In this document: positions 39,432 through 58,110 of the stretch, in pieces
Layout: each line of letters opens with the position of its first letter
Numbering within the stretch: position 1 is the stretch's first letter
Origin: Gammaproteobacteria bacterium
GTDB lineage: Bacteria > Pseudomonadota > Gammaproteobacteria > Ga0077536
Reading direction: 5' to 3'
DNA length: 64,000 nt
Assembly: GCA_050247235.1 (NCBI GenBank)
Contig: JBFWUN010000001.1
Span: 103,630-167,629 of the forward strand
Position numbers and translations under genes: made by a program
Notes under the pieces: generated by a model
Seen by the model: only the letters and a program-made list of their open reading frames with translations
Told to the model about the DNA's origin: nothing
Databases searched by the model: none

Positions 39432-39479
39432 GCTCGGCGCACATGCGAGAGAAAACCCGGCGCGAGCCGGGTTTTTTTT
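39051..39479 (+). repeat. 429-bp direct repeat, copy 1 (acnA 3' end + terminator)
   Basis: No differences from 41847-42275 found on reading by eye. Confidence 0.93.
39452..39479 (+). terminator. Rho-independent terminator, probably bidirectional
   Basis: AAAACCCGGC-GCGA-GCCGGG-T8. Confidence 0.9.
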
Positions 39480-39550
39480 ACTTGTCCCGTTTACGCTTCC
39501 TCGTCACGTACAAGTGGCTAGATGCAAACAATCGAATAACTCAACCCTCA

Positions 39551-41595: not shown

Positions 41596-41846
41596 GAGTG
41601 TCCTTAGCTGGCTTTGCGCGTGGCTCGGTCCGCGCCAACGAATGTGTTGGACTATTCGACTAGGCGCCGATTCGATTTCAGCGTCGCCTGTGAGAAGCCG
41701 GAAGAATAAACTGTCGCTTAGTACGCCGGAAGGGCCTTAGGGGTTCGCCTGGCCTATCGGCGTGTCGTCGAAACCGCCCGAAGCGGATTTCTTGACATTG
41801 ATCTTCAATATCTGCATGCGTAGACAGAAGCTTCCCGAGCGCTCCT

Positions 41847-42275
41847 CTGGTGGTCCTGGCCGGCAAGGAATACGGCACGGGCTCGAGCCGTGACTGGGCC
41901 GCGAAGGGCACCATTCTCCTGGGCGTCAAGGCTGTGATCTCGGAGAGCTTCGAACGCATCCACCGCGCGAACCTCGTTGGCATGGGCGTGCTGCCGCTGA
42001 ACTTTGCGGACGGACAGAACGCGCAGTCGCTGGGGCTGGACGGCACCGAGGTGTTCGATTTCGAAGGGCTTGCGGAAGGCGCGAAGGAGCTGACCGTCAA
42101 CGCGAAGAAGGCGGACGGCAGGACGGTCACGTTCAAGGCCAGGGTACGCATCAACACGCCGATGGAGTGGGCGTACTACGCGCACGGTGGCGTGCTGCAG
42201 TACATGCTTCGCCAGATGGCGAGCTGAGCTCGGCGCACATGCGAGAGAAAACCCGGCGCGAGCCGGGTTTTTTTT
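41847..42275 (+). repeat. 429-bp direct repeat, copy 2 (5'-truncated acnA fragment + terminator)
   Basis: Duplicate of 39051-39479; encodes only the last ~126 aa of AcnA. Confidence 0.93.
42248..42275 (+). terminator. Duplicated acnA terminator
   Basis: Same hairpin + T8 as 39452-39479. Confidence 0.85.
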
Positions 42276-43477: not shown

Positions 43478-45110
43478 TCCCGGCGTAGCCGTCCGATGCC
43501 TGCTTCAGGTATTTCGCGTACTCGGCGCCGCCGGTCGCGAAGATGTTGTAACGGGTGTGTCCGTACTCGTGGCCTTCGAGGTTGGAGTTGTAGCCCGTGA
43601 TCCAGCTCTGCGCCTTGCGCAACAGCATCCCCTCGTAGCTCGCCTTGACGGCCTCGAACCATGCCTGCTGGGCATCTGCCTTGGCATCGAAGCGCGTGTA
43701 TCCCCGTGCCCACATGAACTCCAGCAGCGGCATGATCCAGTCCACTGCCACCTCGGAGCCACGCGGAAAGTTGGCGGCGGCGATCTGCGGCCCACCCAGC
43801 ATCACCAGGTTGGGGAAGCCGTGGATCATCATGCCGAGATAGGTGGCGGGACCCCGGGCCCACGCTTCGCACAGCTTCCGGCCGCCGAGGCCGCGGATGT
43901 CAATGCGATCGTAGGCGCCGGTGAACGCATCGAACCCGGTCGCATAGACAAGGATGTCGAACTCGAATTCCCGGTCGGCCGTACGCACTCCGGTCGCGGT
44001 GATGCGCTCGATCGGCGTTGCCTTCGCGTCCACGAGTTCGACGTTGTCGCGGTTGTAGGCTTCGAAGTAGTTCGTCTCCAGCGGCAGGCGCTGGATACCG
44101 AAACCGTGATCTCGCGGGATCAGCAGTTCCGCGATCCTCGGGTCCTTCACGCGCGCCCGGATCTTGTCCGCGATGAACGCCGACATCTCGGCGTTGGCAC
44201 GCTCGTCCATGAAGATCTCCGGGAAGTTCGCCAGCCAGATCCCGAAGCCTGGCTCCGCGTAGAGCTTCTCCCAGAACGCACGCCGTTCCTCCGCCGAGAG
44301 GTCGTAGAAGCTGCGCTTGTCGGGCTCGTGTTCGAACGCGGCCGGCGAGCGGGCGCAGGCGGCGAAGATCTCGTCGTAGCGGGCGCGGATTGCCGCCATC
44401 TCGGCGTCGCCGATCGGCCCGTTGTTGAGTGGTGCGGCCCAGTTCGCGCGCCGCTGGAACACCGTCAGGCGGGCCGCCTGCTGCGCGACGACCGGGATGA
44501 TCTGGATGGCCGTGGCGCCGGTGCCGATGATGCCGACCCGCTTGCCCGCAAGATCGGGCGGCTGGTGCGGCCAGTCCGCGGTGTGGAACGACAGCCCCCT
44601 GAAGTCCTTCATCCCCGGGATCCTGGGCAAGGTCGGAATCGACAGCGGCCCAAGTCCCGCAACGACGACGTGCGCCGTCAGCAGTCGTCCGCCGTTCAAC
44701 GTGAGCCGCCAAGTGTCCGTGGCTTCGTCGAAATGCATGGCTTCCACGCGACAGCCGAACTGCATGTGCTTGCGCAGGTCGAACTTGTCGACGACATAGT
44801 TCAGGTAGCGCAGGGTTTCCGGTTGCGGCGAGAAGCGTTCGGACCAGTGCCACTCGTTCAGCACTTCTTTCGAAAACGAGTAGCCGTAGGTGTAACTCTC
44901 GGAATCGAAGCGCGCGCCGGGATAGCGATTGTTGTACCAGGTGCCGCCGAGATCGGCGTTGGCGTCCAGCACCGTCGCGTGCACGCCGAGATCGGCGAGC
45001 CGCTTGATCTGGTAGATGCCGGACACTCCAGCACCGATGACGATGACTTCGTAATCGCACGGAGACATGCGCGGATTGCCGGAGGTGGACTGCTTTGCGG
45101 TGTTCGCCAT
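43464..45110 (-). CDS. Type I Baeyer-Villiger monooxygenase
   Basis: GAGVSG, GGTWYNNRYPGARFDSES, FRGLSFHTADWP, GTGATA; start could be 45068. Confidence 0.92.
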   Translation of the reverse strand: MANTAKQSTSGNPRMSPCDYEVIVIGAGVSGIYQIKRLADLGVHATVLDANADLGGTWYNNRYPGARFDSESYTYGYSFSKEVLNEWHWSERFSPQPETLRYLNYVVDKFDLRKHMQFGCRVEAMHFDEATDTWRLTLNGGRLLTAHVVVAGLGPLSIPTLPRIPGMKDFRGLSFHTADWPHQPPDLAGKRVGIIGTGATAIQIIPVVAQQAARLTVFQRRANWAAPLNNGPIGDAEMAAIRARYDEIFAACARSPAAFEHEPDKRSFYDLSAEERRAFWEKLYAEPGFGIWLANFPEIFMDERANAEMSAFIADKIRARVKDPRIAELLIPRDHGFGIQRLPLETNYFEAYNRDNVELVDAKATPIERITATGVRTADREFEFDILVYATGFDAFTGAYDRIDIRGLGGRKLCEAWARGPATYLGMMIHGFPNLVMLGGPQIAAANFPRGSEVAVDWIMPLLEFMWARGYTRFDAKADAQQAWFEAVKASYEGMLLRKAQSWITGYNSNLEGHEYGHTRYNIFATGGAEYAKYLKQASDGYAGITFA

Positions 45111-45327
45111 GACGAGCCTCTTCGTTGTCATACCTGGTAGTCGATCGGCGTCCCGACCCACCGTACGGCGCCTCCCCGTTCAGCTGCGCAGGGGACGTCG
45201 GCCAGTACCCGGTACACGATCGGACGCTGCCCGAAACAAGCCCGCCCGATGCTGATCACGATCATGTCTTCCGCATCTGCGCACGTGTCCGTGACCGGTA
45301 CTCGTCTTCACGTCCGCCGTGGCGAGC

Positions 45328-45795
45328 TCACCGCCCCCGGCTTGGCCACTGGACCCCGTAGTCGGCGAGACCACCCGACAGGCGGGTGCCGCCTGCCTCG
45401 CGCACCACGTCCCGGAAGGACGGACTGCCGACGACCTGGGACTTGAACGCGGTGAGGAAACGCGTCACGTCCGTCCGGAGGTCCTCGGCGAGCTGGAAAT
45501 GCGCGTAAGCCTCATCCAGCACCTCGAGCAATTCCTGCCAATGCGCTTCGGTGATGCCCATGCCTTTATGGGCCGCGATCATGTCCCGTCCCTGGTAGAC
45601 CGCGGGTCCTCCCCAATGAGAGGACGCGAAATCGCAGAAGCTCTGCAGTTCCGCCTTGACCCGTTCCTCGGACATGTGCTTCCAGATCTTCCCGACCTCC
45701 TCCCGCGCCATCATCCGCGCGATCACGTATTCGATGAACGCATAGATCGCGTCGTAACCTCCGACCCGTTCATAGAGTGTGCGTATGTCCGCCAT
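45328..45795 (-). CDS. Group I truncated hemoglobin
   Basis: TLYERVGG, GGPAVYQGRDMIAAHKGMGIT (proximal His). Confidence 0.85.
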   Translation of the reverse strand: MADIRTLYERVGGYDAIYAFIEYVIARMMAREEVGKIWKHMSEERVKAELQSFCDFASSHWGGPAVYQGRDMIAAHKGMGITEAHWQELLEVLDEAYAHFQLAEDLRTDVTRFLTAFKSQVVGSPSFRDVVREAGGTRLSGGLADYGVQWPSRGR

Positions 45796-45940
45796 GGAGT
45801 CCTCCTGCGCATCCGCCGCGCCAGTCGTTCGCGTGCGCACCGCGCGCCACCGGGACTTGGTACCACGGATCGGCGGTCGCCCGCCACCGGGCCGAACCTG
45901 CTGCACCGCGCAGCTTGCACTGCAATCCGCGCGGATGGAC

Positions 45941-45955
45941 CGGCACGATTTCTGC
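45941..45955 (+). promoter_or_regulatory. Candidate sigma-54 promoter, distal to sod
   Basis: CGGCACGATTTCTGC, GG-N10-GC. Confidence 0.45.
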
Positions 45956-46150
45956 GCGAACGCGACAACCCGCCCGGGCCGCTGGCAGGGATCAAGGTCA
46001 TCTAACCGCGGGCGTGTCGCATCGGCGTGCGGCTACGCGGCGCCCGCGTGAACGTGGGACCGCGGCAGAAATTTCACGACTGATGCAGATTGTGCACACC
46101 CGAACGATCACTCAATCCGCCGAATCAGGGCATTCGCCCGCTCCGGCTCC

Positions 46151-46165
46151 CGGCACGCAACTTGC
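46151..46165 (+). promoter_or_regulatory. Sigma-54 promoter for sod
   Basis: CGGCACGCAACTTGC, near-consensus -24/-12. Confidence 0.72.
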
Positions 46166-46257
46166 CTCGTGAACGATGCGATCGACGCGTGTCGATCGCG
46201 CACCGCAACGCGCTGGAACTGCCCAGGCGCCAGGCACATCAGAAAGAGGGTTGCGTC

Positions 46258-46878
46258 ATGTTCGAACTGATCAATCTCCCGTACGAGGACACGGCACTCG
46301 AACCAGTGCTGTCACGCGAAACGCTCCGCTTCCACCACGGCAGGCATCATCGCACCTACGTGGACAAGCTGAACGCACTGCTGAACGACAATCCCCGGGC
46401 GGTACGCTCCCTGGACGACCTCGTGCGGACCGCGGACGGCGCGCTGTTCAACAACGCCGCCCAGGCCTGGAACCATGACTTCTACTGGCTCGGATTGCGT
46501 CCGCGACCCGGCCAGCCCGACCGGCGTCTGCTGAACCAGTTGCGCGCAAGCTTCGGAGGTGAGGCGAAGTTCCGCAGCGAGTTCACGCGCAAGGCGTCCG
46601 CGCACTTTGGCGTCGGGTGGGCCTGGCTGACGGCGCACATGGACGGCACGCTCGAAGTCCAGTGCACGTCGGACGCGGATACCCCCCTCCGCCACGGGAG
46701 CCAGGCATTGCTGGCATGCGACCTGTGGGAACACGCGTATTACATCGACTACCGGGATTCGCGCACTCGCTACCTTCATGCGTTCTGGGAGATCGTGGAC
46801 TGGGAGACCGTCAGCGATCGTTTCGACGCGACGATGTCGCAGGCGCGCCGGAGTGACCTGAAGCGCCGCTCCGGCTGA
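46258..46878 (+). CDS. sodB: Fe/Mn superoxide dismutase (Fe-type signature)
   Basis: HHGRHH, FNNAAQAWNH, DLWEHAYY. Confidence 0.88.
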   Translation: MFELINLPYEDTALEPVLSRETLRFHHGRHHRTYVDKLNALLNDNPRAVRSLDDLVRTADGALFNNAAQAWNHDFYWLGLRPRPGQPDRRLLNQLRASFGGEAKFRSEFTRKASAHFGVGWAWLTAHMDGTLEVQCTSDADTPLRHGSQALLACDLWEHAYYIDYRDSRTRYLHAFWEIVDWETVSDRFDATMSQARRSDLKRRSG

Positions 46879-46890
46879 CGAGATCGACGC

Positions 46891-47196
46891 GTGGCATTTG
46901 CGCAGTTCGCCCGGGCCTGCCGACGTCGATTCGATGCCTGGGGGAATCGCTGCCGAGTGGCGCGGGCAGTCAGGGCCGCCGCCGGGTTCTCGCTGCTGGC
47001 GGTTGGCGTGATCATGCTCGTCACCCCCGGGCCGGCGGTCGTCGTCATCCCGAGCGGGCTCGCGATGCTCGCTCCGGAGTTTCCATGGGCACGCCGAGTG
47101 CTCCTGCGTCTCGCGGATTGGACACGCGAGCACCGCCTCAGACGGATCTCCAAGGTGCTTCAGCGCGGTGCGCAATCCCGCAAATCAGCACGTTGA
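46891..47196 (+). CDS. PGPGW-domain small membrane protein
   Basis: G..LL.VG.IMLVTPGPA...IP.GLA.LA.EF.WA. Confidence 0.7.
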   Translation: MAFAQFARACRRRFDAWGNRCRVARAVRAAAGFSLLAVGVIMLVTPGPAVVVIPSGLAMLAPEFPWARRVLLRLADWTREHRLRRISKVLQRGAQSRKSAR

Positions 47197-47258
47197 ATAC
47201 AATCGTGTGGTGACGGGCGCCTTCATTGCCCGAGAGTAACATCCCGCCGTTCGCGCGC

Positions 47259-48644
47259 TCAGATCCAGAACCACAGGAGTGCAGCGGCCCTCTCCTTCAG
47301 ACGCTGCAACATGGTCCGCTGCATCAGTTTCTCCGTCTTCAAGCGGGATGCGCGCTCGAGATCCACCCGAAACACCCGGGACATCCTGTCCGCGAAGTGA
47401 CCGTCGACGATCACGGCCGTGATCTCGTTGTTGTGCACCAGGCTGCGGAGATCGAGATTGGACGACCCGATCATCGACAACCCATCGTCTATCACCGCGA
47501 TCTTCGCGTGAATGAATCCCGCCTCGTACAGGTACAGCCGTACACCCGCGTCCAGCAGTTCGGAGAACAGTGTTCGTGATGCGTTCGCGGTCAACACCGA
47601 GTCGCTGACGGAGGGAAGCAGAATCCTCACATCGACCCCGCGACGCGCCGCGTCGAGCAGCGCGTGCTTGAGCGACTCGTCAGGCAGAAAGTAGGGTTGA
47701 GTGATCCAGAGCCGGCTCCGGGCATGCGTGAAGGCAGCAAGATAGGTGCCATGAATCGCTGTTTCTTCGTCCGCGGGATTGCTGACGACGGCGGCGACGA
47801 GCGCCGTGCCCACGGGGACATTGTCGGGCATGTAGCGGAGGTCCGGACCGGGAGCCTCGCCCCCCGCCGCCGCCCACGCTGCGAAAAACTGCGCCTGGAA
47901 TTGCTGGACCACGGGTCCTTCGATCCGGACCTGTGTGTCTCTCCACCCATCCTTCAGCGCGTCCTCGGTGTCACGCTTCACGGTCGCCGACGAATTGTAG
48001 GTCCCGCTGATATTGACCCCGCCGACGAACGCGGTCTTGCCATCCACGATGAGGAGTTTGCGGTGATCGCGCTGCTGGAACCTGCCGCTGACCACGTCAT
48101 CCACGGTTTCAACCGGGTGATACGCCTCGACCTCAACGCCTGCGGCCGTCATCGCGCGGAACAGCGATTCGTCCGAACTCAAGGATCCGAACGCGTCGTA
48201 GAGCACACGAACTTCCACGCCCTCTTCGCGCTTTGCCATCAGAAGATCGGCGAAGGAGCGCCCCAGGGAGTCGTCCGCGAAGATGTACGTTTCGACATGC
48301 ACATGATGTCGCGCCTCCTGGATTGCCGCGCCGTAGGCGGCGAATATCGCGGGTCCATCGTGATAGGGCGTCACCCGGTTGCCGGCGACGAATGTCGCGT
48401 GGTGAATGCTGCGCCGGACTGCATCGAGCAGTGCGCGATTGCCGGGCGTGTTTCTTCGCGCCCCCAGTGCGGCTCGATACAGTACCGCGTCCGCGTCAGC
48501 GGAACCGGCACCCTCGGCGGTCACCAGCGGCGGCGCAACGGGAGCAGGCGCCGCCGAGGTGACTCGGACCGCCGAACCGGCGCAGCCTGCAAGCTGGACG
48601 AGCGCGACGAACACGATGGTGACCGGGGTGTAAATTCTCATCAT
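47259..48644 (-). CDS. Cardiolipin synthase-like phospholipase D with lipoprotein signal
   Basis: Two HKD motifs (HRKLLIVD, HAKIAVID), WRDT, GSSNLD; lipobox LAGC. Confidence 0.88.
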   Translation of the reverse strand: MMRIYTPVTIVFVALVQLAGCAGSAVRVTSAAPAPVAPPLVTAEGAGSADADAVLYRAALGARRNTPGNRALLDAVRRSIHHATFVAGNRVTPYHDGPAIFAAYGAAIQEARHHVHVETYIFADDSLGRSFADLLMAKREEGVEVRVLYDAFGSLSSDESLFRAMTAAGVEVEAYHPVETVDDVVSGRFQQRDHRKLLIVDGKTAFVGGVNISGTYNSSATVKRDTEDALKDGWRDTQVRIEGPVVQQFQAQFFAAWAAAGGEAPGPDLRYMPDNVPVGTALVAAVVSNPADEETAIHGTYLAAFTHARSRLWITQPYFLPDESLKHALLDAARRGVDVRILLPSVSDSVLTANASRTLFSELLDAGVRLYLYEAGFIHAKIAVIDDGLSMIGSSNLDLRSLVHNNEITAVIVDGHFADRMSRVFRVDLERASRLKTEKLMQRTMLQRLKERAAALLWFWI

Positions 48645-48727
48645 CGTCTTGAATTCCTTACATGTCAGAGCCGCCGCACTCCCCGGAATCCGCTTCCTTG
48701 TCGTTGTTTCGGCAGAGATAAATCAAA

Positions 48728-48742
48728 TGGCATGCCATCTGC
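48728..48742 (+). promoter_or_regulatory. Sigma-54 promoter for the BON gene
   Basis: TGGCATGCCATCTGC, GG-N10-GC, ~78 nt upstream of the ATG. Confidence 0.68.
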
Positions 48743-48819
48743 ACTCCTGAACTCGGGCGGCGCGCAACCGGACATCCGGAACCACGCCTCCATCCCCACT
48801 CGATGACAAGGAGCGATTC

Positions 48820-49125
48820 ATGAAACACGCAACGAAGTTCTCATCCGTCATTGGCCTGGTCGGCGTGCTGTCCGGGCCTGCATGGGCCGCTGAAACTCAT
48901 ACGGCGGGTGAAATCCTTGATGACACCGTGGTGACCACGAAGGTCAAGGCGAAGCTGGTTGCAGATCCCGTCACCAAGGCGCACCAGATCTCGGTCGAAA
49001 CCTTCGAGGGCACGGTCAAGCTGTCCGGCTTCGTGGACACACCCGCCGCTGAGCAACGGGCGATCGAGATCGCCCGTGGCATCAAGGGCGTAACGGCCGT
49101 CGAAGACAATCTCGACGTCCGTTGA
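48820..49125 (+). CDS. BON-domain protein (OsmY-like)
   Basis: Signal peptide; DD..VTTKVKAKL, ISVET..G.V.LSGFV, GV..V...L. Confidence 0.9.
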   Translation: MKHATKFSSVIGLVGVLSGPAWAAETHTAGEILDDTVVTTKVKAKLVADPVTKAHQISVETFEGTVKLSGFVDTPAAEQRAIEIARGIKGVTAVEDNLDVR

Positions 49126-49459
49126 ACGAAGACGTGAGCCGGGTCGGCGGTGACATCACGTCACTGCCGGCCCGGCCCTCGTGCTTCATCGCCCCGGATG
49201 CGCTCACCCAGGGATCACGATGACCCGGATGGCGCCACGCCACCGGCACGGTTCAGTTTCGCTGCTCCCCCACGCCTCACCGGGTGTTTCGCGCCGCGGC
49301 ACTCGCAGGCACCCATCGCCGGCAGACTTCGGACACATGCCAACGTGCTGTCTGAAACCCGCCGGTCAATCGGCGCACGACATGAATGGCGCGCGCGAAG
49401 CGCCCCGCCTGCCATCCGCGGGCGGGGCATATCGCGGGTATCACCGCTTGGACCAGCCG

Positions 49460-49624
49460 CTAGACGCCTGGCCTCCTGCCGAGCACCGTGAACACGATCG
49501 CAAGGATCAGCCCGACGACGAACAGCACCCAGGCGATGTGCATCGACATCCCGGCAATACCGGAGAGTCCGAGAACGCCAGCGATGATCGCGATGACGAG
49601 GAACGTGATTGCCCAACTGAACAT
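49460..49624 (-). CDS. DUF1328 (YtjA-like) small membrane protein
   Basis: [25 protein letters not shown]...[10 protein letters not shown]. Confidence 0.88.
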
Positions 49625-49667
49625 GGTGAACATCCTTTCCAATCGTTGAACTTGGATGTTCAGTCCT

Positions 49668-49682
49668 GCAGCTAACATGCCA
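49668..49682 (-). promoter_or_regulatory. Sigma-54 promoter for the DUF1328 gene
   Basis: Minus strand TGGCATGTTAGCTGC. Confidence 0.65.
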
Positions 49683-49861
49683 GCCCGACTTCTCGTCGAA
49701 TCGCGATAGATCATGCAGAAAGCGCGCGCGCACGCCTGCCGCGGACAAAGGATTCCCGCCGGTATCCACCCCGGGCCTTCGCAGGGAGAGTTTCCGCGAT
49801 GCCGGGCTGTGGACGATCGATCCAGGGCCAGTGCGCTCGGCAGTTCTTACACCGCGGGGTG

Positions 49862-51280
49862 TCAGAATTTCCCTGGCTGCGTATCCGCCGGCGGCTCGTA
49901 CGAGGAAGTCGCCGACGGGAGAAATGCTTCGACGATAGTCCCCGCGGCAGCGGCTCGCGGCCTGACGGAAAATTCGCCGCCGATCACCGCGACACGTTCG
50001 CGCATGCCGATCAGCCCGTGCGAGAGCGGCCGATCCAGTGCGTCGGCCTGGATACCGACGCCGTCATCGATGATGCGCAGGCGGATCCCGTCATGTTCGC
50101 GATGCAACTTGACCTGCACGCTCGATGCGTGCGCGTACTTGGCGATGTTGGTCAGAGATTCCTGCACCACCCTGAAGAGCGAAATCCTCCAGTGGGGATC
50201 GATCTCTCCGATGTCCTCGGGAATTTCCACGTGACATGGGATGTCACTGCGCCGCGCGAAGTCCTCGCAATGCATCCTGATTGTCGCAGGCAGCCCCAGG
50301 CTGTCCAGCATGCTCGGCCGAAGACCCTGGATAATGCGTCGCTTGAGATTCACAGTCTCCCGCAACAGCTTGCTCGCACGTGCAAGCTTGTTGGCGAGCG
50401 ACGGCTCGAGCTTCTCCAGCCGACCCTGCACGGTACTCACGTCCAGGATGATGGCCGTGAGGTTCGATCCCAGTTCGTCGTGCATGTCGCGCGCGAGCGT
50501 CGCTTTCTCGCTCTCGGTGACGCTGATCAGATGTCGCGCGAGATGCGACAGCTGCTGAGTCCGCTTGTGGACTTGCAGGCCGAGCGTTTCATTGGCGAGC
50601 TTGAGATCGCGTTCCGCGATGAGCCTTCTGCGCAGATTGGCAGCGACACTGCTGTACAGGACCCCTAGCGTGGCGAGCGAGATCACCCCGATACCGATGT
50701 TCTGCAGCGTCGCTGACCGGAATTCCTGAACCGCCCTCGCGTTACGGGTAATGATCGACTGTCGCTCCTCATCGATCATCGTATCGATGAGGACGACTGC
50801 CCGATCCATCAGGCTCTTGCCCCGGTCGGAATTCACTTCCCGGATCGCCGCATCGCGTTCACCCCGCTCCGTCATCGTGACCGTGCGGTTCATCTCGCGC
50901 AGTTTCGCACGCAGCAGGTCATCGAGGTCGAGAAGTCGAGCAGCCTGGGTGGGTTCGGCGCGGACGAGTAATCGCAGCTTGTCCAAGGCCTCCGGCAACC
51001 TGGATTCGGCGGGGCGATACTGGTTGAGATAGTCGGGATCCAGGGTGAGCAGGTAACCCCGCTGGCCGCTCTCCAGAAGCGCAAGATCCGCCTGCAGGCT
51101 GTGCAGCAGTCCCTTGGTGGACCACGTGGTGGTGGACTGCACCGCGCCCTCCTCGACCTTCTGCATCACCGTCCAGCGCGACGCGGCGTTGATGACGATC
51201 AGCGTGATGGATGTCACCAGCAGCAGCGTGAGCCGCAACGGCATGATCGCGATGGCCGTTTCATCGTCGGGTTTCGTCAC
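49862..51280 (-). CDS. CHASE3-domain sensor histidine kinase (HisKA_3)
   Basis: ESGQRGYLLT (CHASE3), ARDMHDELGS, QESLTNIAKYA, DDGVG, GLIGMRER. Confidence 0.92.
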   Translation of the reverse strand: MTKPDDETAIAIMPLRLTLLLVTSITLIVINAASRWTVMQKVEEGAVQSTTTWSTKGLLHSLQADLALLESGQRGYLLTLDPDYLNQYRPAESRLPEALDKLRLLVRAEPTQAARLLDLDDLLRAKLREMNRTVTMTERGERDAAIREVNSDRGKSLMDRAVVLIDTMIDEERQSIITRNARAVQEFRSATLQNIGIGVISLATLGVLYSSVAANLRRRLIAERDLKLANETLGLQVHKRTQQLSHLARHLISVTESEKATLARDMHDELGSNLTAIILDVSTVQGRLEKLEPSLANKLARASKLLRETVNLKRRIIQGLRPSMLDSLGLPATIRMHCEDFARRSDIPCHVEIPEDIGEIDPHWRISLFRVVQESLTNIAKYAHASSVQVKLHREHDGIRLRIIDDGVGIQADALDRPLSHGLIGMRERVAVIGGEFSVRPRAAAAGTIVEAFLPSATSSYEPPADTQPGKF

Positions 51281-51554
51281 CTCCGCTCCCTTCTGCCCGG
51301 CGCTGCGGACCTCGTGCCACCCCGAGCTTCTTCGTCACCTTCCAGCACCAGGTGATGCATTCAATGTACCTGACAAGCGCCACCGTCATGCGCTCCGTCC
51401 GTCGCGGAGGTGGGCCGAGGAGCCCTGACCCCACGCCCACGAGCCCGGCCACGAGGAGCCCGAGGGGAGTCACGGCGCGCGTGCAGAGTTGTCGCCTGAG
51501 TGCTGCTTCGCGGACACTCAGCCGCTGCAGCCGCCTCCATGCCGTTTCGCGCAT
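51261..51554 (-). CDS. Small hypothetical protein (YqjK-like position)
   Basis: Short ORF with one hydrophobic stretch between the YqjE-like gene and the kinase. Confidence 0.4.
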   Translation of the reverse strand: MRETAWRRLQRLSVREAALRRQLCTRAVTPLGLLVAGLVGVGSGLLGPPPRRTERMTVALVRYIECITWCWKVTKKLGVARGPQRRAEGSGGDETRR

Positions 51555-51572
51555 CGCTTCGATACCCGCCGC

Positions 51573-51980
51573 TCAGCGCGCGTCCTTCAGCGGGAGACGG
51601 TTCCGTCTCCTTGGCCTCCGGAGGAGGCGGACGCCCCACCATGTCAGCGCCAGCGCGACGAAGTTGGCGCCGACCCCGAGCGCCCATGCGGACGGGGCAT
51701 CGACCCCCGAGACGAGCGCGCAGTAGACGATCGCGCCAAAAGACAACGCCCACATCGAGGTCACGAGCGTGGCGCCCAGCAGCACGAGTACGAGCAGCAT
51801 GGACAAGCGCCGCTGAGCCCGTCTCAGTTCTTCCCCGAGCAGGTCCAGGAACGTGAACGCCATCTCGACCCAGACGGTGATGAGCGTCGACACAAGCGTC
51901 GTCGCCTTCGGTGGCCCAGGGGTGCGCGTTCCGTCCTCCTCAGGTGCCACCGCCCGGGATTCACCGGGCACGGTGCTCAT
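51573..51980 (-). CDS. YqjE / phage-holin-like membrane protein
   Basis: L...EL.....R followed by two TM helices; downstream of the DUF883-like gene. Confidence 0.55.
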   Translation of the reverse strand: MSTVPGESRAVAPEEDGTRTPGPPKATTLVSTLITVWVEMAFTFLDLLGEELRRAQRRLSMLLVLVLLGATLVTSMWALSFGAIVYCALVSGVDAPSAWALGVGANFVALALTWWGVRLLRRPRRRNRLPLKDAR

Positions 51981-51987
51981 GGACTGT

Positions 51988-52329
51988 TCAACGCCGCAGC
52001 AGGCGCGTCAGCACGAATCCGGCCGCCGCCGCGCACACGAGTGTCTTGCCGGGGTGTGTTCTGATCAAGGTCGCGCATTCATTCGCGAGGCGCACGTAAA
52101 GCTCGCGCGCGTCTTTCACGCCGGAGTCCGCGGCGGCACCGGCCTCCGCGGCGAAGGTGTTCACGGTATCCACCGCCTCGTGTGCCTCGCGCGCGAGGCG
52201 GTCGATCACCGAGTGCGAAACCACCGAGGTTTCTTCCTGGTGATTGCGGCCAGGCGCATCTTCGCGCTTCACGCGCCGTGTCGCCCTTGCCGAATTGCGC
52301 CCGGCAGCGTGATCCCGTCGTGTCTCCAT
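51988..52329 (-). CDS. DUF883 / ElaB-YqjD-like protein
   Basis: C-terminal IRTHPGKTLVCAAAAGFVLTRLLRR tail anchor. Confidence 0.7.
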   Translation of the reverse strand: METRRDHAAGRNSARATRRVKREDAPGRNHQEETSVVSHSVIDRLAREAHEAVDTVNTFAAEAGAAADSGVKDARELYVRLANECATLIRTHPGKTLVCAAAAGFVLTRLLRR

Positions 52330-52369
52330 GTCAGCCTCCGAATGTTCCGATAGTCGTCGCATGATCGGG

Positions 52370-52384
52370 GCAATTTCCGTACCA
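52370..52384 (-). promoter_or_regulatory. Sigma-54 promoter for the DUF883-like operon
   Basis: Minus strand TGGTACGGAAATTGC. Confidence 0.7.
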
Positions 52385-52432
52385 CCTCGGTCGAACCCGG
52401 CCCGGCGTCGAGGGAACGCTGCGTCGAACGCC

Positions 52433-52849
52433 TCAATGCCGGTTGTCGGCCGCGAGCCGATCGATGATGTCCAGCAAAGTGCCGAAGCCGGTGGCCTTGT
52501 CCAGGAAGTACTGCGCGCCGTAGAGGGCTGCCAGACGTCGGAACTCACTCTCGACATAGTTGCTGAAGATGATGCGTGTCGCGGGTTGCTCCCGTGCCGG
52601 TTGCGCATTCGCGAGTTCCCGCAGCACACCAAGACCGGTTCCCTCACGCAGCTGGATGTCGGCGATCAGGACGTCACACGGAGTCTGCGCCAGCGCGTCG
52701 CGCGCCTCCCGTTCCGATTCGGCCGTCCCCACCACCTGCACGTGCGGGATCTCAACGAGCTGCTCCACCAGCAACGCCCGAACCGTCGGCGAGTCCTCGA
52801 CGATGAATACCCGCAGTGGAACTTCCGGCTGTTCGGCTGGTGATTGCAT
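52433..52849 (-). CDS. Stand-alone response regulator receiver
   Basis: VFIVEDS, DIQLREGTG, FSNY, FLDK; no output domain. Confidence 0.85.
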   Translation of the reverse strand: MQSPAEQPEVPLRVFIVEDSPTVRALLVEQLVEIPHVQVVGTAESEREARDALAQTPCDVLIADIQLREGTGLGVLRELANAQPAREQPATRIIFSNYVESEFRRLAALYGAQYFLDKATGFGTLLDIIDRLAADNRH

Positions 52850-53008
52850 GTCAGTTCTTCCAGCAACGGTTGTCATGTCCCGGCGCGGGTCGCCTTGAAT
52901 CCGGACAACGGCGTCGCGCGCGGGCCTCCGGACCGGGACGACGGAAACCGCGCGTGCCGGCGCACTCTCTACCCTGCGTAAGCGGCGAACCTCCGTCGCA
53001 GGAAATCT

Positions 53009-53641
53009 CTAGTCGATCAGGTCGTTCTTGATCGCGTAATACGTAAGGTCAGCATTGTTCGCCACCTTCATTTTCTCGAGTATCCGGGTCCGGTAAGTGC
53101 TGACCGTCTTCACGCTGAGGTTGAGTTGCGTGGCTATCGCGCTCACCGGCTCGCCCCGGGAGAGCATCATGAATACCTGGTGCTCCCGCTCGGAGAGTTC
53201 TTCGTGCAGGGGCTTCTCGCTTCCTCGGTCCAGCTCTGCGGCCAACAGCTCTGCGACGGCCGCACCAATGTACCGGCGTCCCTGTCGGACTGTACGGATC
53301 GCCTGCACGAGTTCCGTCGCCATGGCTTCCTTCTGCAGGTATCCGCTCGCCCCGTTCCGGATCAGCTGCACGGCATAGCGGTTCTCGGGATGCATGCTCA
53401 GGATGAGCACGGGAAGATTCGGCTGTTCTCTGCGGATCTGCTTCAGCAGATCGATTCCATCCCGATCAGGCATGGAGATATCGAGCAGTACCACGTCGAA
53501 TTGGCCGGTGCGCATCTGCTGTATCGCGGCTGCTGCAGTCGCTGCCTCGCCGGCCACGTGGATATCGTCGATTTCCGCGAAGAAATGCTGCAGTCCGGCT
53601 CTCACCACTGCGTGATCGTCTACCACGAGAATCCTGATCAT
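53009..53641 (-). CDS. NarL/UvrY-family response regulator
   Basis: VVDDHAVVR, LLDISMP, GYLQK; LuxR HTH LSERE...LSVKTVSTYR. Confidence 0.93.
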   Translation of the reverse strand: MIRILVVDDHAVVRAGLQHFFAEIDDIHVAGEAATAAAAIQQMRTGQFDVVLLDISMPDRDGIDLLKQIRREQPNLPVLILSMHPENRYAVQLIRNGASGYLQKEAMATELVQAIRTVRQGRRYIGAAVAELLAAELDRGSEKPLHEELSEREHQVFMMLSRGEPVSAIATQLNLSVKTVSTYRTRILEKMKVANNADLTYYAIKNDLID

Positions 53642-53735
53642 GTCCGGTGCCTCATCAGTTTCGCGGACAGGAGACTCCGATGCGCCCGTACGATTCCAGG
53701 GATGCGTCCACGTGAATGCGTCACGACCAGTGCAG

Positions 53736-54821
53736 TCACGCCGCGGAGCGCTGTTCAGTACGCGCGAAACGCTCGTAGTCGTTGAGACGATTGTAGAGCG
53801 TTTTCAGGCTTATCCCCAGCACGCGGGCCGCGTGCCGCTTGTTGCCGTCGCACCTCGACAGCGTGGCGAGAATCAGCTTTCTTTCCGTCTCCGCGATGGA
53901 GGTTCCCACGGGAATCATGAGTTGTTCGGTGCACGAAGCGGGATCGGTCGTCAGTGTCGTCGTGCAGACCTCGAGTTCGTGATCGGCCAGGATGAAAGCT
54001 CGGTGAATCGTGTTCTTCATCTCGCGGACATTGCCGGGCCATTGATGAGAATGAAGATACTCCCGGAATGCATCGGAGAAGGTCTTTTCCTGCGTGTACT
54101 CATCGTTCAGTTCCGCCAGGAACCGCTCCGCGAGCAGCTCGACATCACTGCCCCGCTCCCGCAATGGCGGGACCTGCAAGGGGAAGACCGCGAGACGGTA
54201 CAGGAGATCCGCACGCAGGATGCCTTCCGCGACCGCGCGTTCGGGATGCCGGTTGGTGGCGGCAACGATCCGGCAGCCCGCGTGCAGTTCCTGGTCTCCG
54301 CCGACCCTGAAAAAGTGCCCCGTCTCGAGCACGCGCAGAAGTTTCACCTGGAGTTCGAGCGACATCTCCGTCACTTCGTCCAGGAAGAGCGTGCCATCGG
54401 CGGCCCGTTCGAACACGCCCTTGTGTCCCCGCACTGCGCCGGTAAAGCTCCCTTTCTCGTGCCCGAACAGCTCGGCTTCAATGAGGTTCTGCGGGATCGC
54501 GCCGCAGTTGATTCCGATGAACGGTTTGCCGGCGCGGTCCGAGCGTGCATGCACGTGCTGCGCGACGACTTCCTTGCCCACGCCGCTTTCACCGACGATC
54601 AGGACGTTCGCGCGCGTCGGCGCAACGCGATCGAGCATTTCGAAGAGCTTCGCCATCGGCGCGGAGTCGCCCCACAGCGGTGGCAGCGCCGCGCGCGGGC
54701 TTGGACCGGGTTCCGCGGCGTTCACTGGCGCGCGAAGCCCAGCGCGAAAAGCCTCGACGGTCGTGTCGTCCAGCATCGGTCGGTCGTCGGCGTCGTTGCG
54801 CAAGTGCTCTGCATCCATCAT
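53736..54821 (-). CDS. Sigma-54 enhancer-binding protein (AAA+ and Fis HTH) with no recognisable N-terminal regulatory domain
   Basis: GESGVGKE, ELFGHEKGSFTGA, LFLDEV, WPGNVRE, GNKRHAARVLGISLKTLYNRL; start uncertain. Confidence 0.9.
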   Translation of the reverse strand: MMDAEHLRNDADDRPMLDDTTVEAFRAGLRAPVNAAEPGPSPRAALPPLWGDSAPMAKLFEMLDRVAPTRANVLIVGESGVGKEVVAQHVHARSDRAGKPFIGINCGAIPQNLIEAELFGHEKGSFTGAVRGHKGVFERAADGTLFLDEVTEMSLELQVKLLRVLETGHFFRVGGDQELHAGCRIVAATNRHPERAVAEGILRADLLYRLAVFPLQVPPLRERGSDVELLAERFLAELNDEYTQEKTFSDAFREYLHSHQWPGNVREMKNTIHRAFILADHELEVCTTTLTTDPASCTEQLMIPVGTSIAETERKLILATLSRCDGNKRHAARVLGISLKTLYNRLNDYERFARTEQRSAA

Positions 54822-55085
54822 GGCTCTCACTCCCTGTCGAAGGTTGGCTGAGTGCGGTGCGACGCCAGTGTCCGGTTCCGGGGTTCCGGCCGGCATCGGC
54901 GAGCCGCCCGCATTGGCGCAGGACATCGATGACATGTTGTAGGAGCAACCCCTACAAGGCATCGTCGTGTGGCTGTGCGAGGGCGCCGGCAAGGGTTCTC
55001 CAATTTTTACCCGGGGCTCTGTAGAACTTGCGCATCCTCACCGCGGGGATGCGCGCAAGTACCTGATTCGACGACAGCGACAACT

Positions 55086-55100
55086 TGGTCCGCCGCTTGC
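55086..55100 (+). promoter_or_regulatory. Sigma-54 promoter for the csbD-like operon
   Basis: TGGTCCGCCGCTTGC, GG-N10-GC. Confidence 0.65.
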
Positions 55101-55155
55101 AGCTGATTGCTCGTCACGCTGCACGTCGCAGCTTAGTAGCCGAAAGGAGCAGCCC

Positions 55156-55362
55156 ATGAACTGGGATATCGCCAAGGGCAACTGGATCGAGTTCAAAGGC
55201 AGGGTGCGGGAGCAGTGGGGTCGGCTGACGGACGATGATCTCGATGTCGTCGCCGGTCATCGCCAGCAGCTCGCCGGCCGGATTCAGCAGGTTTACGGCC
55301 TCACGCGCGAAGAAGCGGAGCGCCAGCTCGAAGTGTTCGAGAAGATTCACCGCTTCGACTGA
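55156..55362 (+). CDS. CsbD/YjbJ family stress protein
   Basis: MNWD..KGNW..FKG.VREQWG.LTDDDL...L.G.IQ..YG; AAGGAG RBS. Confidence 0.92.
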   Translation: MNWDIAKGNWIEFKGRVREQWGRLTDDDLDVVAGHRQQLAGRIQQVYGLTREEAERQLEVFEKIHRFD

Positions 55363-55393
55363 GCGGATCCGCATTCAACGAGGAGAACACCCC

Positions 55394-55798
55394 ATGATCA
55401 GCAAGCATGTCTATATCGCTGCCGCGGTCGGAGCCGCGCTCACCGGCGCCTTTTCCGTGGTCAACGCGGAAAGCCTCGTGTCCCAGGCAACCATACGCGA
55501 GGCGCTCGCGGTCGAGAACCTGCGACTGGAAGACGGCGTGGTGACCGGCCGCCTCGTCAACCGATCCGCAGGGAAGATCGACAATGTCGAACTCCTGGTC
55601 ACGTTCAACTGGCTGTGGCGCGACGAGTTCAACCCGGGAAATGGCGGTCCCGGACAGACCACCTCCGTGGTGCTCACGGAGCCACTCGCGCCGGGCGCGG
55701 CGGAAGACTTCCGCGTGGAATCCGCCGCGCCGCTGCCGATGCGGAGTGACGGCTATTTCACGCCGCGCGTGGCGGTGGTCGGATTCACGCAGTACTGA
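55394..55798 (+). CDS. Secreted hypothetical protein (FxLYD-like beta domain possible)
   Basis: GAGGAG RBS, signal peptide, VTGRLVNRS...LAPG...F. Confidence 0.6.
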   Translation: MISKHVYIAAAVGAALTGAFSVVNAESLVSQATIREALAVENLRLEDGVVTGRLVNRSAGKIDNVELLVTFNWLWRDEFNPGNGGPGQTTSVVLTEPLAPGAAEDFRVESAAPLPMRSDGYFTPRVAVVGFTQY

Positions 55799-55827
55799 CA
55801 GTCGTGGCACGAAGGAAAGGAACGCGC

Positions 55828-56079
55828 ATGAAAGTTCAATTGAGTACTCTTGCACTGATGGTGTCTCTCGCCGGTTGCGGCACGGCGCCGGAAGAACGCG
55901 CGCTCAGCGGCGCGGGCATCGGCGCCGGCGCAGGGGCTGCGCTGGGCGCCGTCACGGGCATGTCGGTGGCCACGGGCGCGATTGTCGGTGCCGCGGCAGG
56001 TGCGGCCACTGGCGCACTGACCGATGATCGGCAGGTGAACCTGGGTGATCCTGCCTGGAAGAAGAAGAAGCAAAGATGA
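55828..56079 (+). CDS. Glycine-zipper lipoprotein
   Basis: Lipobox LAGC; GAGIGAGAGA...GAIVGAAAGAATG; VNLGDP.W. Confidence 0.82.
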   Translation: MKVQLSTLALMVSLAGCGTAPEERALSGAGIGAGAGAALGAVTGMSVATGAIVGAAAGAATGALTDDRQVNLGDPAWKKKKQR

Positions 56080-56329
56080 GCGCCGCACGCTGCGCACGGC
56101 GGCGGATCGCCGTCGTGCGCAGTGCGCGCATTGTTGTCGACCTCGCTTGCTGCGCTGCGACCTGTTGCGCTTTGCCCTGGGCCCGCTCTATGGTGCTTCC
56201 GCTTCCCCATCCCGCGGACACACCATGCCTTGCGTACCCGCCCGACCAATCCGCCCTTCCGTCCCGTGTTCGTGTGGCACTGCCCGGCTGAGCGTCGATC
56301 CGGCGCAGAATTCCTGAGAGGCGACGGTC

Positions 56330-57541
56330 ATGGATAAGGCTGCCTTTTACGCGGATGCACGCCACGATCTCCCGGGCCCTCTCGCAGGGGTGACGGTCCT
56401 GGAGGCGACCACCACGTGGGCCGGCCCGATGGCAGGTTGCGTGCTCGCCGATCTCGGTGCGTCGGTCGTGAAAATCGAACATCCCGATGGCGAAATCATG
56501 CGACGTGTGCCCCCGTTCGTGCCGGACACCCGGCTGTCCGTCATGCACGAAGTGGTCAACCGCAACAAGCGGAACATCTCCCTCAGCCTCAAGGATCCGG
56601 AGGGGCGCGATGTCTTCCTCGCGCTCTGTGCGACCGCCGACATCGTGATCGAGAATTTCAAACCCGGCACGCTCGCCGACTGGGGCTGCGGGTATGCGGA
56701 CGTCAAGGCGGTCAAGCCGGACGTGATCTACGTGTCCATCAGCGGTTTCGGCCAGTTCGGCCCGTACTGCGACCGGCCGGGCTACGATCCGATCGCGCAG
56801 AATTTCACGGGCTGGTCGTCACTGAACGGCGAGCCCGGTGGCGCGCCGGTGAAGGCGCCGACATTCCTCGGCGACGATCTCGGCGGCCTGCACGGCGCGC
56901 TCGGGGCACTCGCCGCACTTACTCATCGCAACCTCACCGGCGAGGGTCAGCACGTGGATGTCGCGCTTGTCGACGGGCTGGTGTTCCAGAGCAACGGGCA
57001 CCTGACGATCGGCGCGCTCGGTTTGCCGCAGGAGCGCTGGGGCAACCAGTTCGCGCTCGCCGCGCCGGTCAATTCCTATGTCTGCACGGACGGCCGCGTG
57101 TACACAGGCGTGCTGCTCGACTCCCACTGGCGCGCGTTCTGCCGGCATATCGGCCGCGCGGATCTCGCCGACCTGGACGGACTTGCGCGCATCCGCCGGC
57201 GTGACGAACTCGATCATCTCCTCGCGCAGTGGTGTGTATCCCGCTCGACGCAGGATGTGGTCGACACGATGAACATGCTCGGGCTCGCGGTCACGCGCGT
57301 GAACTCGTTCGCCGAAGCGGCACGGGATCCGCACCTGCAGGCCCGGGACATGCTGCAGCCTACGCCCCTCGGCAACGGCGGCACGATCCCGCTGACGGGA
57401 CCGGCCGCCAAGTTCTCGCGCACGCCCACCCGCGTGCGCAGCGCCGCGCCGGCGCTCGGCGAACATACCGATGCGCTGCTGGCGCAGCTCGGCTACTCCC
57501 CCGCGCAGATCGCCGATCTGCGTGACCGACACATCATCTGA
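56330..57541 (+). CDS. CaiB/BaiF family III CoA-transferase
   Basis: PLAGVTVLE, AGP, LADLGA, NRNKR, ENFKPG, SISGFGQ.GP, AP.LGEHT. Confidence 0.93.
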   Translation: MDKAAFYADARHDLPGPLAGVTVLEATTTWAGPMAGCVLADLGASVVKIEHPDGEIMRRVPPFVPDTRLSVMHEVVNRNKRNISLSLKDPEGRDVFLALCATADIVIENFKPGTLADWGCGYADVKAVKPDVIYVSISGFGQFGPYCDRPGYDPIAQNFTGWSSLNGEPGGAPVKAPTFLGDDLGGLHGALGALAALTHRNLTGEGQHVDVALVDGLVFQSNGHLTIGALGLPQERWGNQFALAAPVNSYVCTDGRVYTGVLLDSHWRAFCRHIGRADLADLDGLARIRRRDELDHLLAQWCVSRSTQDVVDTMNMLGLAVTRVNSFAEAARDPHLQARDMLQPTPLGNGGTIPLTGPAAKFSRTPTRVRSAAPALGEHTDALLAQLGYSPAQIADLRDRHII

Positions 57542-57560
57542 TTCCACAGGAGGAACGCCC

Positions 57561-57995
57561 ATGAACTCGACCCCCGCACATCACGGCAGCTGCTTTTGCG
57601 GCGCGGTGAAACTCACTGTCTCCGGTGCACCCGCCGGGATGGGCTATTGCCATTGCGGCGACTGCCGTCACTGGTCAGCCGGCCCGATCAACGCGTTCTC
57701 GCTGTGGCCGCCGGCCGCAGTGCAGGTGACGGCCGGCGCGGAACACATCGAGACCTACCACAAGACCGAGAACAGCTACCGCAAGTGGTGCAGGAAGTGC
57801 GGCGGGCACCTGTTCAGCGAACATCCGGGCATGGGACTGACGGACGTCTACGCGGCCATCCTGCCGAGCCTGCCGTTCCAGCCCGGGCTGCACGTGTTCT
57901 ACGGCGAGGCGATGGTGCACGTGAAGGACGGGTTGCCGAAGTTCAAGGATCTGCCGGCGGATTTCGGCGGCTCGGGAGACACGCTGCCGGAGTAG
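57561..57995 (+). CDS. GFA family Zn-binding protein
   Basis: GSCFCGAV, CHCGDCR, CRKCG. Confidence 0.9.
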   Translation: MNSTPAHHGSCFCGAVKLTVSGAPAGMGYCHCGDCRHWSAGPINAFSLWPPAAVQVTAGAEHIETYHKTENSYRKWCRKCGGHLFSEHPGMGLTDVYAAILPSLPFQPGLHVFYGEAMVHVKDGLPKFKDLPADFGGSGDTLPE

Positions 57996-58110
57996 CACCG
58001 GCCGCGATTAAAAGACGGTACATCCGTGTACCGCCGGAATCCCCGCCTTCCACAGGGATTCCACCAACCGGGGGCCGGCGCCGCGCGCCGGCCCTGCTTG
58101 CCGAGGAACC

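Follow-up and report, generated by a model that had tools for sequence, protein, structure and literature searches.

The window analysed here, a stretch of 64,000 nucleotides (nt), is part of contig C1 of a gammaproteobacterial genome (assembly of 4.66 Mb in 152 contigs, ~67% G+C, 90% complete). At ~45.9-56.1 kb of the window, Pfam-supported gene calls describe a 10.1-kb island in which the gene for a sigma-54 activator is surrounded by genes for a superoxide dismutase (SOD), a cardiolipin synthase, several small membrane or exported proteins, and a sensor kinase with two response regulators. The original prediction for this island, made from the sequence alone, was a sigma-54-dependent general stress regulon with its own local regulators, standing in for RpoS or SigB control. 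The first part is borne out by the density of sites, by their conservation ahead of effector genes specifically, by a shared palindrome, by a single rpoN gene, and by an intact activator, whereas the replacement of RpoS is not. We consider it probable that the island is a compact sigma-54 regulon of five units, which would be served by the island activator through a shared palindromic enhancer and would operate in parallel to RpoS.

Gene content of the island and its activator

The genes of the island, with positions in the window, are the following.

46258..46878, + strand: Fe/Mn superoxide dismutase, sod (Pfam Sod_Fe_N, Sod_Fe_C)
46891..47196, + strand: PGPGW membrane protein (Pfam PGPGW)
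47259..48644, - strand: cardiolipin synthase of the PLD family, cls (Pfam; TIGR04265, 309.9 bits, over cut-off)
48820..49125, + strand: BON-domain (OsmY-like) exported protein (Pfam BON)
49460..49624, - strand: DUF1328 (YtjA-like) small membrane protein (Pfam DUF1328)
49862..51280, - strand: sensor histidine kinase, CHASE3 + HisKA_3 + HATPase_c (Pfam), last gene of the DUF883-like unit
51261..51554, - strand: orf97, a small open reading frame (ORF) of no family, gene status uncertain
51573..51980, - strand: YqjE/holin-X-like membrane protein (Phage_holin_3_6, 21.8 bits, below the 28.4-bit cut-off)
51988..52329, - strand: DUF883-like (ElaB/YqjD-type) C-tail-anchored protein (Atlas neighbours)
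52433..52876, - strand: single-domain response regulator, receiver only (Pfam Response_reg)
53009..53641, - strand: NarL/LuxR-type response regulator (Pfam Response_reg, GerE)
53736..54821, - strand: sigma-54 activator (bacterial enhancer-binding protein), 361 aa, with AAA+ domain and Fis-type helix-turn-helix (HTH), no receiver
55156..55362, + strand: CsbD-family protein (Pfam CsbD)
55388..55798, + strand: orf136, exported protein of no family, the commonest neighbour of this activator family
55825..56079, + strand: YMGG-type glycine-zipper lipoprotein (Pfam Gly-zipper_YMGG)

Pfam confirmed the SOD, PGPGW, PLD/cardiolipin synthase, BON, DUF1328, CHASE3 kinase, the two response regulators, the sigma-54 activator, CsbD, and Gly-zipper assignments. 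The PGPGW gene starts 13 nt past sod, with which it is probably co-transcribed, and cls is divergent from the BON gene. For the gene that had been called DUF883, the ORF and its sigma-54 site are present as described; the family name found no match in Pfam at E<=5, including PF05957 and PF19029, and none in NCBIfam. Its language-model/structure (Atlas) neighbours carry DUF883_C on 12-39% of their members, and the label is thus a lead rather than a membership. Similarly, orf136 has no family in Pfam (E<=5) or NCBIfam; its Atlas clusters carry none either, and its model is beta-sandwich-like. For orf97, no Pfam (E<=5) or NCBIfam match and no tblastn match in related loci was obtained, and Rfam gave no match in 44000-58000 at E<=0.1. 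No other full-length sod copy was found in the assembly, nor does this 90%-complete assembly hold a second copy of the BON, DUF1328, DUF883-like, csbD, or orf136 gene. The regulon therefore looks self-contained.

The island does encode a sigma-54 activator, as had been proposed (Sigma54_activat PF00158, 218.6 bits; HTH_8 PF02954, 49.7 bits). Its Walker A motif (GESGVGKE, residue 77), GSFTGA loop (residue 124), and Walker B motif (LFLDEV, residue 145) are all intact, GSFTGA being a variant of the GAFTGA loop. The start, MMDAEHLR at 54821, was set by orthologue alignment and a ribosome-binding site, and orthologues begin at the same place. The AAA+ core begins at about residue 49 of 361, and no receiver or other N-terminal regulatory or sensor domain (receiver, GAF, PAS, V4R) was found, a build like that of PspF. 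An N-terminal regulatory domain is optional among bacterial enhancer-binding proteins; PspF and HrpR/S also go without one. The activator meets no NCBIfam equivalog cut-off, that of PspF included (TIGR02974, 277.2 vs 443.55 bits).

Predicted sigma-54 promoters and their conservation

Five GG-N10-GC motifs had been proposed upstream of the sod, BON, DUF1328, DUF883-like, and csbD genes. All five lie exactly at the predicted coordinates and in the right orientation, with -12 elements that end 40-92 nt ahead of the start codons, close to the ~40-95 nt given originally. Scores and genome-wide ranks refer to a sigma-54 weight matrix applied to both strands of the whole assembly.

46151-46166, + strand: predicted sod-PGPGW promoter CGGCACGCAACTTGCC (CGGCACG-CAAC-TTGCC; rank 482)
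48728-48743, + strand: predicted BON promoter TGGCATGCCATCTGCA (TGGCATG-CCAT-CTGCA; 16.1 bits, rank 19)
49682-49667, - strand: predicted DUF1328 promoter TGGCATGTTAGCTGCA (TGGCATG-TTAG-CTGCA; 16.1 bits, rank 20)
52384-52369, - strand: predicted promoter of the DUF883-like operon TGGTACGGAAATTGCC (TGGTACG-GAAA-TTGCC; 14.8 bits, rank 63)
55086-55101, + strand: predicted csbD-orf136-Gly-zipper promoter TGGTCCGCCGCTTGCA (TGGTCCG-CCGC-TTGCA; 13.7 bits, rank 89)

The bare GG-N10-GC pattern carries no information, as it occurs 1368 times in the window. All five sites, however, fit the extended consensus TGGCACG-N4-TTGCW, with GG and GC exactly 10 nt apart (11.4-16.1 bits). Ninety matches in the assembly score at or above the csbD site, and six of these fall inside the island vs 0.196 expected (Poisson P=6.6e-8). 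The island is the densest 10.1-kb window of the assembly, no other such window holding more than three matches; a scan against background, which had been suggested as a check, thus places six of the 90 genome-wide matches here. The lower rank of the sod site is due to its first base, C rather than T, and the same CGGCACG variant also precedes orf136-sod operons in three relatives (loci L050, L051, and L052).

The genome has a single rpoN (TIGR02395, 483 bits, over cut-off). Top matrix matches in non-coding DNA precede ORFs that were read by eye, from their N-termini, as PII, ammonium transporter, glutamine synthetase, flagellar, pilin, and PrkA-like kinase genes, which suggests that the matrix detects real sigma-54 promoters in this organism. 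A crude sigma-70 scan returned no promoter ahead of any of the five units.

The conservation of these sites was followed through an activator search across 81 genomes of the same order, from which 19 loci (318,272 bases) were taken. Ten other genomes have a close activator orthologue (E<=1e-129, 60-70% identity), and eight have a member of a second group (E 1e-108 to 1e-90, 50-58% identity). The close group keeps the gene order (activator, NarL-type regulator, lone receiver, DUF883-like operon, kinase, and DUF1328/BON). Activators of the second group sit with orf136, sod, csbD, and DUF1328; in loci L047-L053, they have an N-terminal receiver and are accompanied by a divergent hybrid kinase. 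Because these receiver-bearing relatives serve the same genes and the palindrome described below, the window activator appears to be a receiver-less derivative of an ordinary response-regulator activator.

Sigma-54 matches of >=12 bits number 107 in the 19 related loci, 0.34/kb vs 0.069/kb in the own genome. With a site counted as conserved at >=13 bits within 450 nt upstream (chance expectation 0.07 per gene), sites precede 7/7 orthologues of the DUF883-like gene, 6/7 of DUF1328 (the seventh has an 11.1-bit site), 3/4 of BON, 4/4 of csbD, and 10/11 of orf136. The regulator orthologues carry far fewer: activator 0/16, lone receiver 0/6, NarL-type regulator 2/10 (both sites falling inside the activator coding region), and kinase 2/7. 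None of three sod orthologues has a site of its own, and all three follow orf136 in the same orientation. Conservation in orthologous islands, another check that had been proposed, is therefore found ahead of the stress genes and not ahead of the regulator genes.

Several further sites in the window deserve mention. For cls, a possible member of the regulon, no canonical sigma-54 site was found, only TGGCATGCCATTTGAT at 48737-48722 (-), with GA replacing GC at -12. Sites with a perfect TGGCATG -24 element but TTGA for TTGC at -12 recur in the related loci (L046, 11218, +; L037, 18547, +; L045, 4966, -); one of them precedes a csbD orthologue, while the window copy points at cls. Such sites may be weak or variant sigma-54 promoters. 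Another sigma-54-like site, TGGCACGAGGTCCGCA at 51319-51304 (-, 12.85 bits), falls within the 3'-terminal part of orf97. The annotated GTG start codon of the CHASE3 kinase follows 24 nt later, and the site may serve this gene as an internal promoter. In addition, a second GG-N10-GC match, CCGGCACGATTTCTGCG at 45940-45956 (+), is located 210 nt upstream of the sod promoter, at the left boundary of the island, and falls below the 8-bit listing threshold.

A palindromic enhancer candidate

Sigma-54 promoters that are served by enhancer-binding activators constitute a classical kind of system. The upstream regions were searched for an enhancer, or upstream activator sequence (UAS). A comparison of the five window upstream regions for common 8-10-mers was unproductive, and exact dyad enumeration gave weak hints only. 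A recurring AT-rich palindrome, TGYAR-N3-YTRCA, became apparent when upstream regions of orthologues were read with the -24 element as anchor. As a fixed pattern, it occurs upstream of 24 of the 99 sigma-54 sites in the order-level loci and downstream of two. Cross-validation between the two activator groups found it upstream of 19/57 sites vs two downstream and of 21/42 vs none, the window being absent from both training sets. In the window itself, the following candidates were recognized, with scores from matrices trained on other loci and distances to the -24 16-mer of the predicted promoter.

46064-46076 and 46084-46096: sod UAS candidates GGCAGAAATTTCA and TGCAGATTGTGCA, 87 and 67 nt upstream (12.1 to 14.6 bits; 12.1/14.6 for TGCAGATTGTGCA)
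48650..48662: UAS-like half-palindrome TGAATTCCTTACA of the BON gene, 78 nt upstream (7.8/11.1 bits)
49839..49851: DUF1328 UAS candidate TGTAAGAACTGCC, read on the - strand, 169 nt upstream (11.7/13.9 bits)
55020..55032: csbD UAS candidate TGTAGAACTTGCG, 66 nt upstream (14.4/14.6 bits)

In the own genome, 18 palindrome matches reach >=14 bits and 89 reach >=12 bits (first, tier-2-trained matrix). Pairs of promoter and palindrome concentrate in the island, which holds four of the 12 best-scoring pairs. The best pair outside it, on contig C61 at ~6383-7018, consists of a perfect palindrome, TGCAAATTTTGCA, 122 nt upstream of a sigma-54-like site, TGGCCCCGCTCTTGCA. This pair was rejected as a regulon member; it precedes an unrelated 155-aa exported protein and adjoins a separate kinase and NtrC-type activator.

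The promoters, their conservation, the enhancer motif, the domain build of the activator, and the neighbourhood can all be read from the DNA itself, and together they outline a mechanism. The five units would be sod-PGPGW; BON; DUF1328; DUF883-like/YqjE-like/orf97/CHASE3 kinase; and csbD/orf136/Gly-zipper. Each would begin at a -24/-12 promoter read by the single sigma-54 of the genome, and formation of the open complex would require the island AAA+ activator. The latter, we infer, binds TGYAR-N3-YTRCA ~55-170 nt upstream and would reach the polymerase via DNA looping. The recognition helix of its HTH is near-invariant across all activator groups and so does not discriminate binding specificity.

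Several observations weigh against the regulon as drawn here. The weight matrix behind the promoter scores was composed from the published consensus. Two of the six island matches are doubtful, one lying inside cls and the other reading the palindromic BON -24 element in reverse; P=5.2e-5 is obtained from the remaining four alone, which are intergenic and correctly oriented. A degenerate pattern allowing up to one mismatch gave nine window matches, six of them in the island, vs 4.42 +/- 1.95 in dinucleotide shuffles, a pattern that was fitted after the sites had been seen. The orthologue counts are not independent events, because the genomes are kin, though kinship leaves untouched the difference seen, inside the same loci, between effector and regulator genes. 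As for the palindrome, an initial matrix placed it upstream of 46/99 sigma-54 sites vs two downstream, 32 of the 46 at 54-98 nt from the -24 16-mer, but this matrix, which made no use of position, was trained on the same upstream regions that it later scored. Its count is thus circular, and the fixed-pattern count and the cross-validation alone avoid this circularity. Within the window, the UAS is clear at three of the five promoters, marginal at BON, and absent at the DUF883-like promoter, where none was found within 260 nt upstream. No exact TGYARNNNYTRCA occurs in the island, and the window enhancers would accordingly be degenerate copies. Moreover, loci of the Burkholderiales seldom have the palindrome (25/251 sigma-54 sites vs eight downstream). 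Finally, RNA-Seq run X5, in which 32% of sampled words were present, yielded contigs on 44500-57500 that are short and low in depth and that lie over genes and intergenic DNA alike, as in three DNA runs; they carry no start, strand, or level and are uninformative about the promoters.

The presence of rpoS and the ubiquity of GG-N10-GC would suit an explanation in which the motifs are unused look-alikes and sigma-70 or RpoS transcribes the genes, as is the case in Escherichia coli. We regard this as highly improbable in view of the density of sites, their stress-gene-specific conservation across genera, the co-conserved enhancer at a fixed distance, and the lack of a sigma-70 consensus promoter upstream of the five units. 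The sites might instead be real sigma-54 promoters that are served by another activator of the genome, the island activator controlling something else. The genome does hold several further sigma-54 activators (nine matches, E<=1e-60), and the DUF883-like promoter is without a nearby enhancer motif. This explanation also appears improbable, as activator gene, promoters, and palindrome keep together in at least 10 genera of the order and as four of the 12 best enhancer-promoter pairs of the own genome lie in the island. A regulon driven by the island activator remains the favoured interpretation.

Control of the activator and relation to known systems

With no sensory or receiver domain, the activator is predicted to be active whenever present. 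Its amount, or less likely its activity, would then be set by the CHASE3 kinase, the NarL-type regulator, and the lone receiver, possibly through an inverted repeat upstream of the activator gene. In related loci, 10 of the 12 receiver-less activators are immediately followed by a NarL-type regulator orthologue (66-74% identity), which all seven receiver-bearing loci lack, and orthologues of the CHASE3 kinase adjoin the activator. The repeat, a possible operator for the NarL-type regulator, is the following.

54937..54957: perfect inverted repeat TTGTAGG-N7-CCTACAA, 116-136 nt upstream of the activator start

In six of 12 receiver-less loci, CCTAC-N5-GTAGG (up to one mismatch) is found 120-230 nt ahead of the activator gene; matches of this kind number 52 across the 4.66 Mb of the own genome. 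The window repeat, GTAGG-N7-CCTAC, is built from the same pentamers in the opposite arrangement, which weakens the case for a cascade. We infer, with modest confidence, a circuit in which the CHASE3 kinase and the NarL-type regulator would respond to a stress signal and set the amount of a constitutively active activator. Such a circuit would have positive feedback, the kinase gene being the final one of a sigma-54 unit.

Between CCTAC-N5-GTAGG and the activator start, a conserved box, CCGATAGG (CAGATAGG in L042), was observed in L036, L037, L038, L039, L041, L042, and L054. It is preceded by a short GC hairpin in L036, L037, and L054, with a variable spacing of ~15-35 nt to the palindrome, and may serve as a promoter element or as a leader structure.

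The same promoters and activator could also be subject to post-translational control, in the style of PspA-PspF, by the lone receiver, the NarL-type regulator, or an anti-activator. In favour of this, the activator lacks a regulatory domain, the single-domain receiver is kept two genes downstream of it in six related loci, and the window repeat mismatches the operator geometry of the relatives. Pfam scans, however, showed no PspA-like gene in the island, and the operator-like palindrome is itself conserved upstream of the activator gene in half of the receiver-less loci. The lone receiver is only generically similar to the receivers of related activators; the idea that it is the detached receiver of the activator was rejected, as it gave 24.6 bits to a receiver-bearing relative vs 31.6 bits to the NarL-type receiver. 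We therefore consider post-translational control rather unlikely and retain control over expression of the activator as the preferred reading.

OsmY, CsbD/YjbJ, ElaB/YqjD, and YtjA are textbook RpoS or SigB targets whose functions are poorly understood, and the E. coli RpoS regulon includes osmY, yjbJ, elaB/yqjD, and ytjA. The island contains the same kinds of effectors (BON/OsmY-, CsbD/YjbJ-, ElaB/YqjD-, and DUF1328/YtjA-like), but its predicted promoters combine sigma-54 with an ATP-dependent activator instead of a stress sigma factor of the sigma-70 family. The proposal that this arrangement stands in for RpoS is not supported. The own genome has rpoS (457.4 bits, over the 378.7-bit NCBIfam cut-off), as do 53 of the 81 genomes of the order and 19 of 20 activator-bearing genomes, the exception being 76% complete. 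With no second copies in the assembly, the BON, DUF1328, DUF883-like, csbD, and orf136 genes appear to depend on sigma-54 with RpoS alongside. The module thus appears to run beside RpoS, having taken over a set of genes that RpoS controls in E. coli.

Among known systems, the closest in build is PspF-psp of E. coli, in which small membrane-stress proteins are expressed from -24/-12 promoters under an activator that consists of AAA+ and HTH domains without a sensory one. The island activator has a like build, its residue 51 aligning with position 3 of the PspF profile, but falls short of the equivalog cut-off given above. Unlike psp, the island has no pspA-type anti-activator, and it combines five promoters and different effectors with an adjoining two-component system. 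ZraSR-zraP, on the other hand, is an NtrC-type two-component sigma-54 system for envelope stress. The receiver-bearing relatives (50-58% identity, L047-L053) are classical kinase and response-regulator activators of this type, with orf136, sod, csbD, and DUF1328 behind sigma-54 promoters that have the same palindrome. The window activator differs in that it has lost the receiver and is accompanied by the CHASE3 kinase, the NarL-type regulator, and the lone receiver.

Beyond the order, activator orthologues of ~50-64% identity occur in public genomes that include Steroidobacter and many Burkholderiales (Caballeronia, Paraburkholderia, Trinickia, Cupriavidus, Achromobacter, and Herminiimonas), with ~57% identity in Caballeronia, Trinickia, Achromobacter, and others. 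Of 99 loci, 32 have a second rpoN in the flanks of the activator, and all 32 lie outside the window's order. In the Burkholderiales (L063-L134), this second rpoN is the first ORF behind a sigma-54 site in 30 loci, which suggests that the second sigma-54 of this group is autoregulated. Sigma-54 sites of the Burkholderiales also precede clusters with csbD, DUF1328, and a DUF883-like gene, as well as ORFs that look, by eye, like genes for trehalose-phosphate synthase (otsA), Dps, and topoisomerase IB. In Burkholderia pseudomallei, rpoN2, a second sigma-54 gene, is reported to be needed for expression of katE, which gives experimental backing there to a connection of sigma-54 with a stress gene; this report, as far as its available text goes, does not describe an activator, an enhancer, or a small-protein regulon (PMC4745423). 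The own genome, in contrast, has its single rpoN, and the order-level loci have none. A search of the literature found no description of sigma-54 control of csbD, BON, DUF883, or DUF1328 genes. In two comparisons of sigma-54 regulons, the main text is without csbD, osmY, and trehalose, although the supplements may list such genes (PMC12316311; PMC3162934).

A broader generalization is tentative, and we rate its chances as somewhat short of even: that a portable, sigma-54-built general-stress module is widespread in Gamma- and Betaproteobacteria, with one activator family acting on TGYAR-N3-YTRCA ahead of OsmY-, CsbD-, ElaB-, and YtjA-like, SOD, and orf136 genes. In one lineage, the receiver would have been lost and control passed to the CHASE3 kinase and the NarL-type regulator, which would set expression of the activator; the module would be ATP-gated and parallel to RpoS. 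If lineages do use sigma-54 with a dedicated activator for these genes, their expression would be all-or-none and would follow a specific signal instead of sigma competition. The signal could then be sought via a defined CHASE3 kinase, and the regulon could be predicted in uncultured bacteria from its enhancer-plus-promoter signature. A stress context would also be provided for orf136, the family-less and most faithful neighbour of the activator. The receiver-bearing and receiver-less forms would further represent a natural case of rewired activator control.

Elsewhere in the window, a stretch of low G+C content was noted at 39048-42143 (57-61% vs ~67%), with an ORF read by eye as a DNA methyltransferase (40567-41595, -) and a 361-aa ORF (39551-40636, -). 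Two perfect 300-nt direct repeats (39048-39347 and 41844-42143) flank it and copy the 3' end of a further ORF (36774-39431), by eye an aconitase gene. An inserted restriction-modification element that duplicated its target could explain the stretch, as could an error of assembly.

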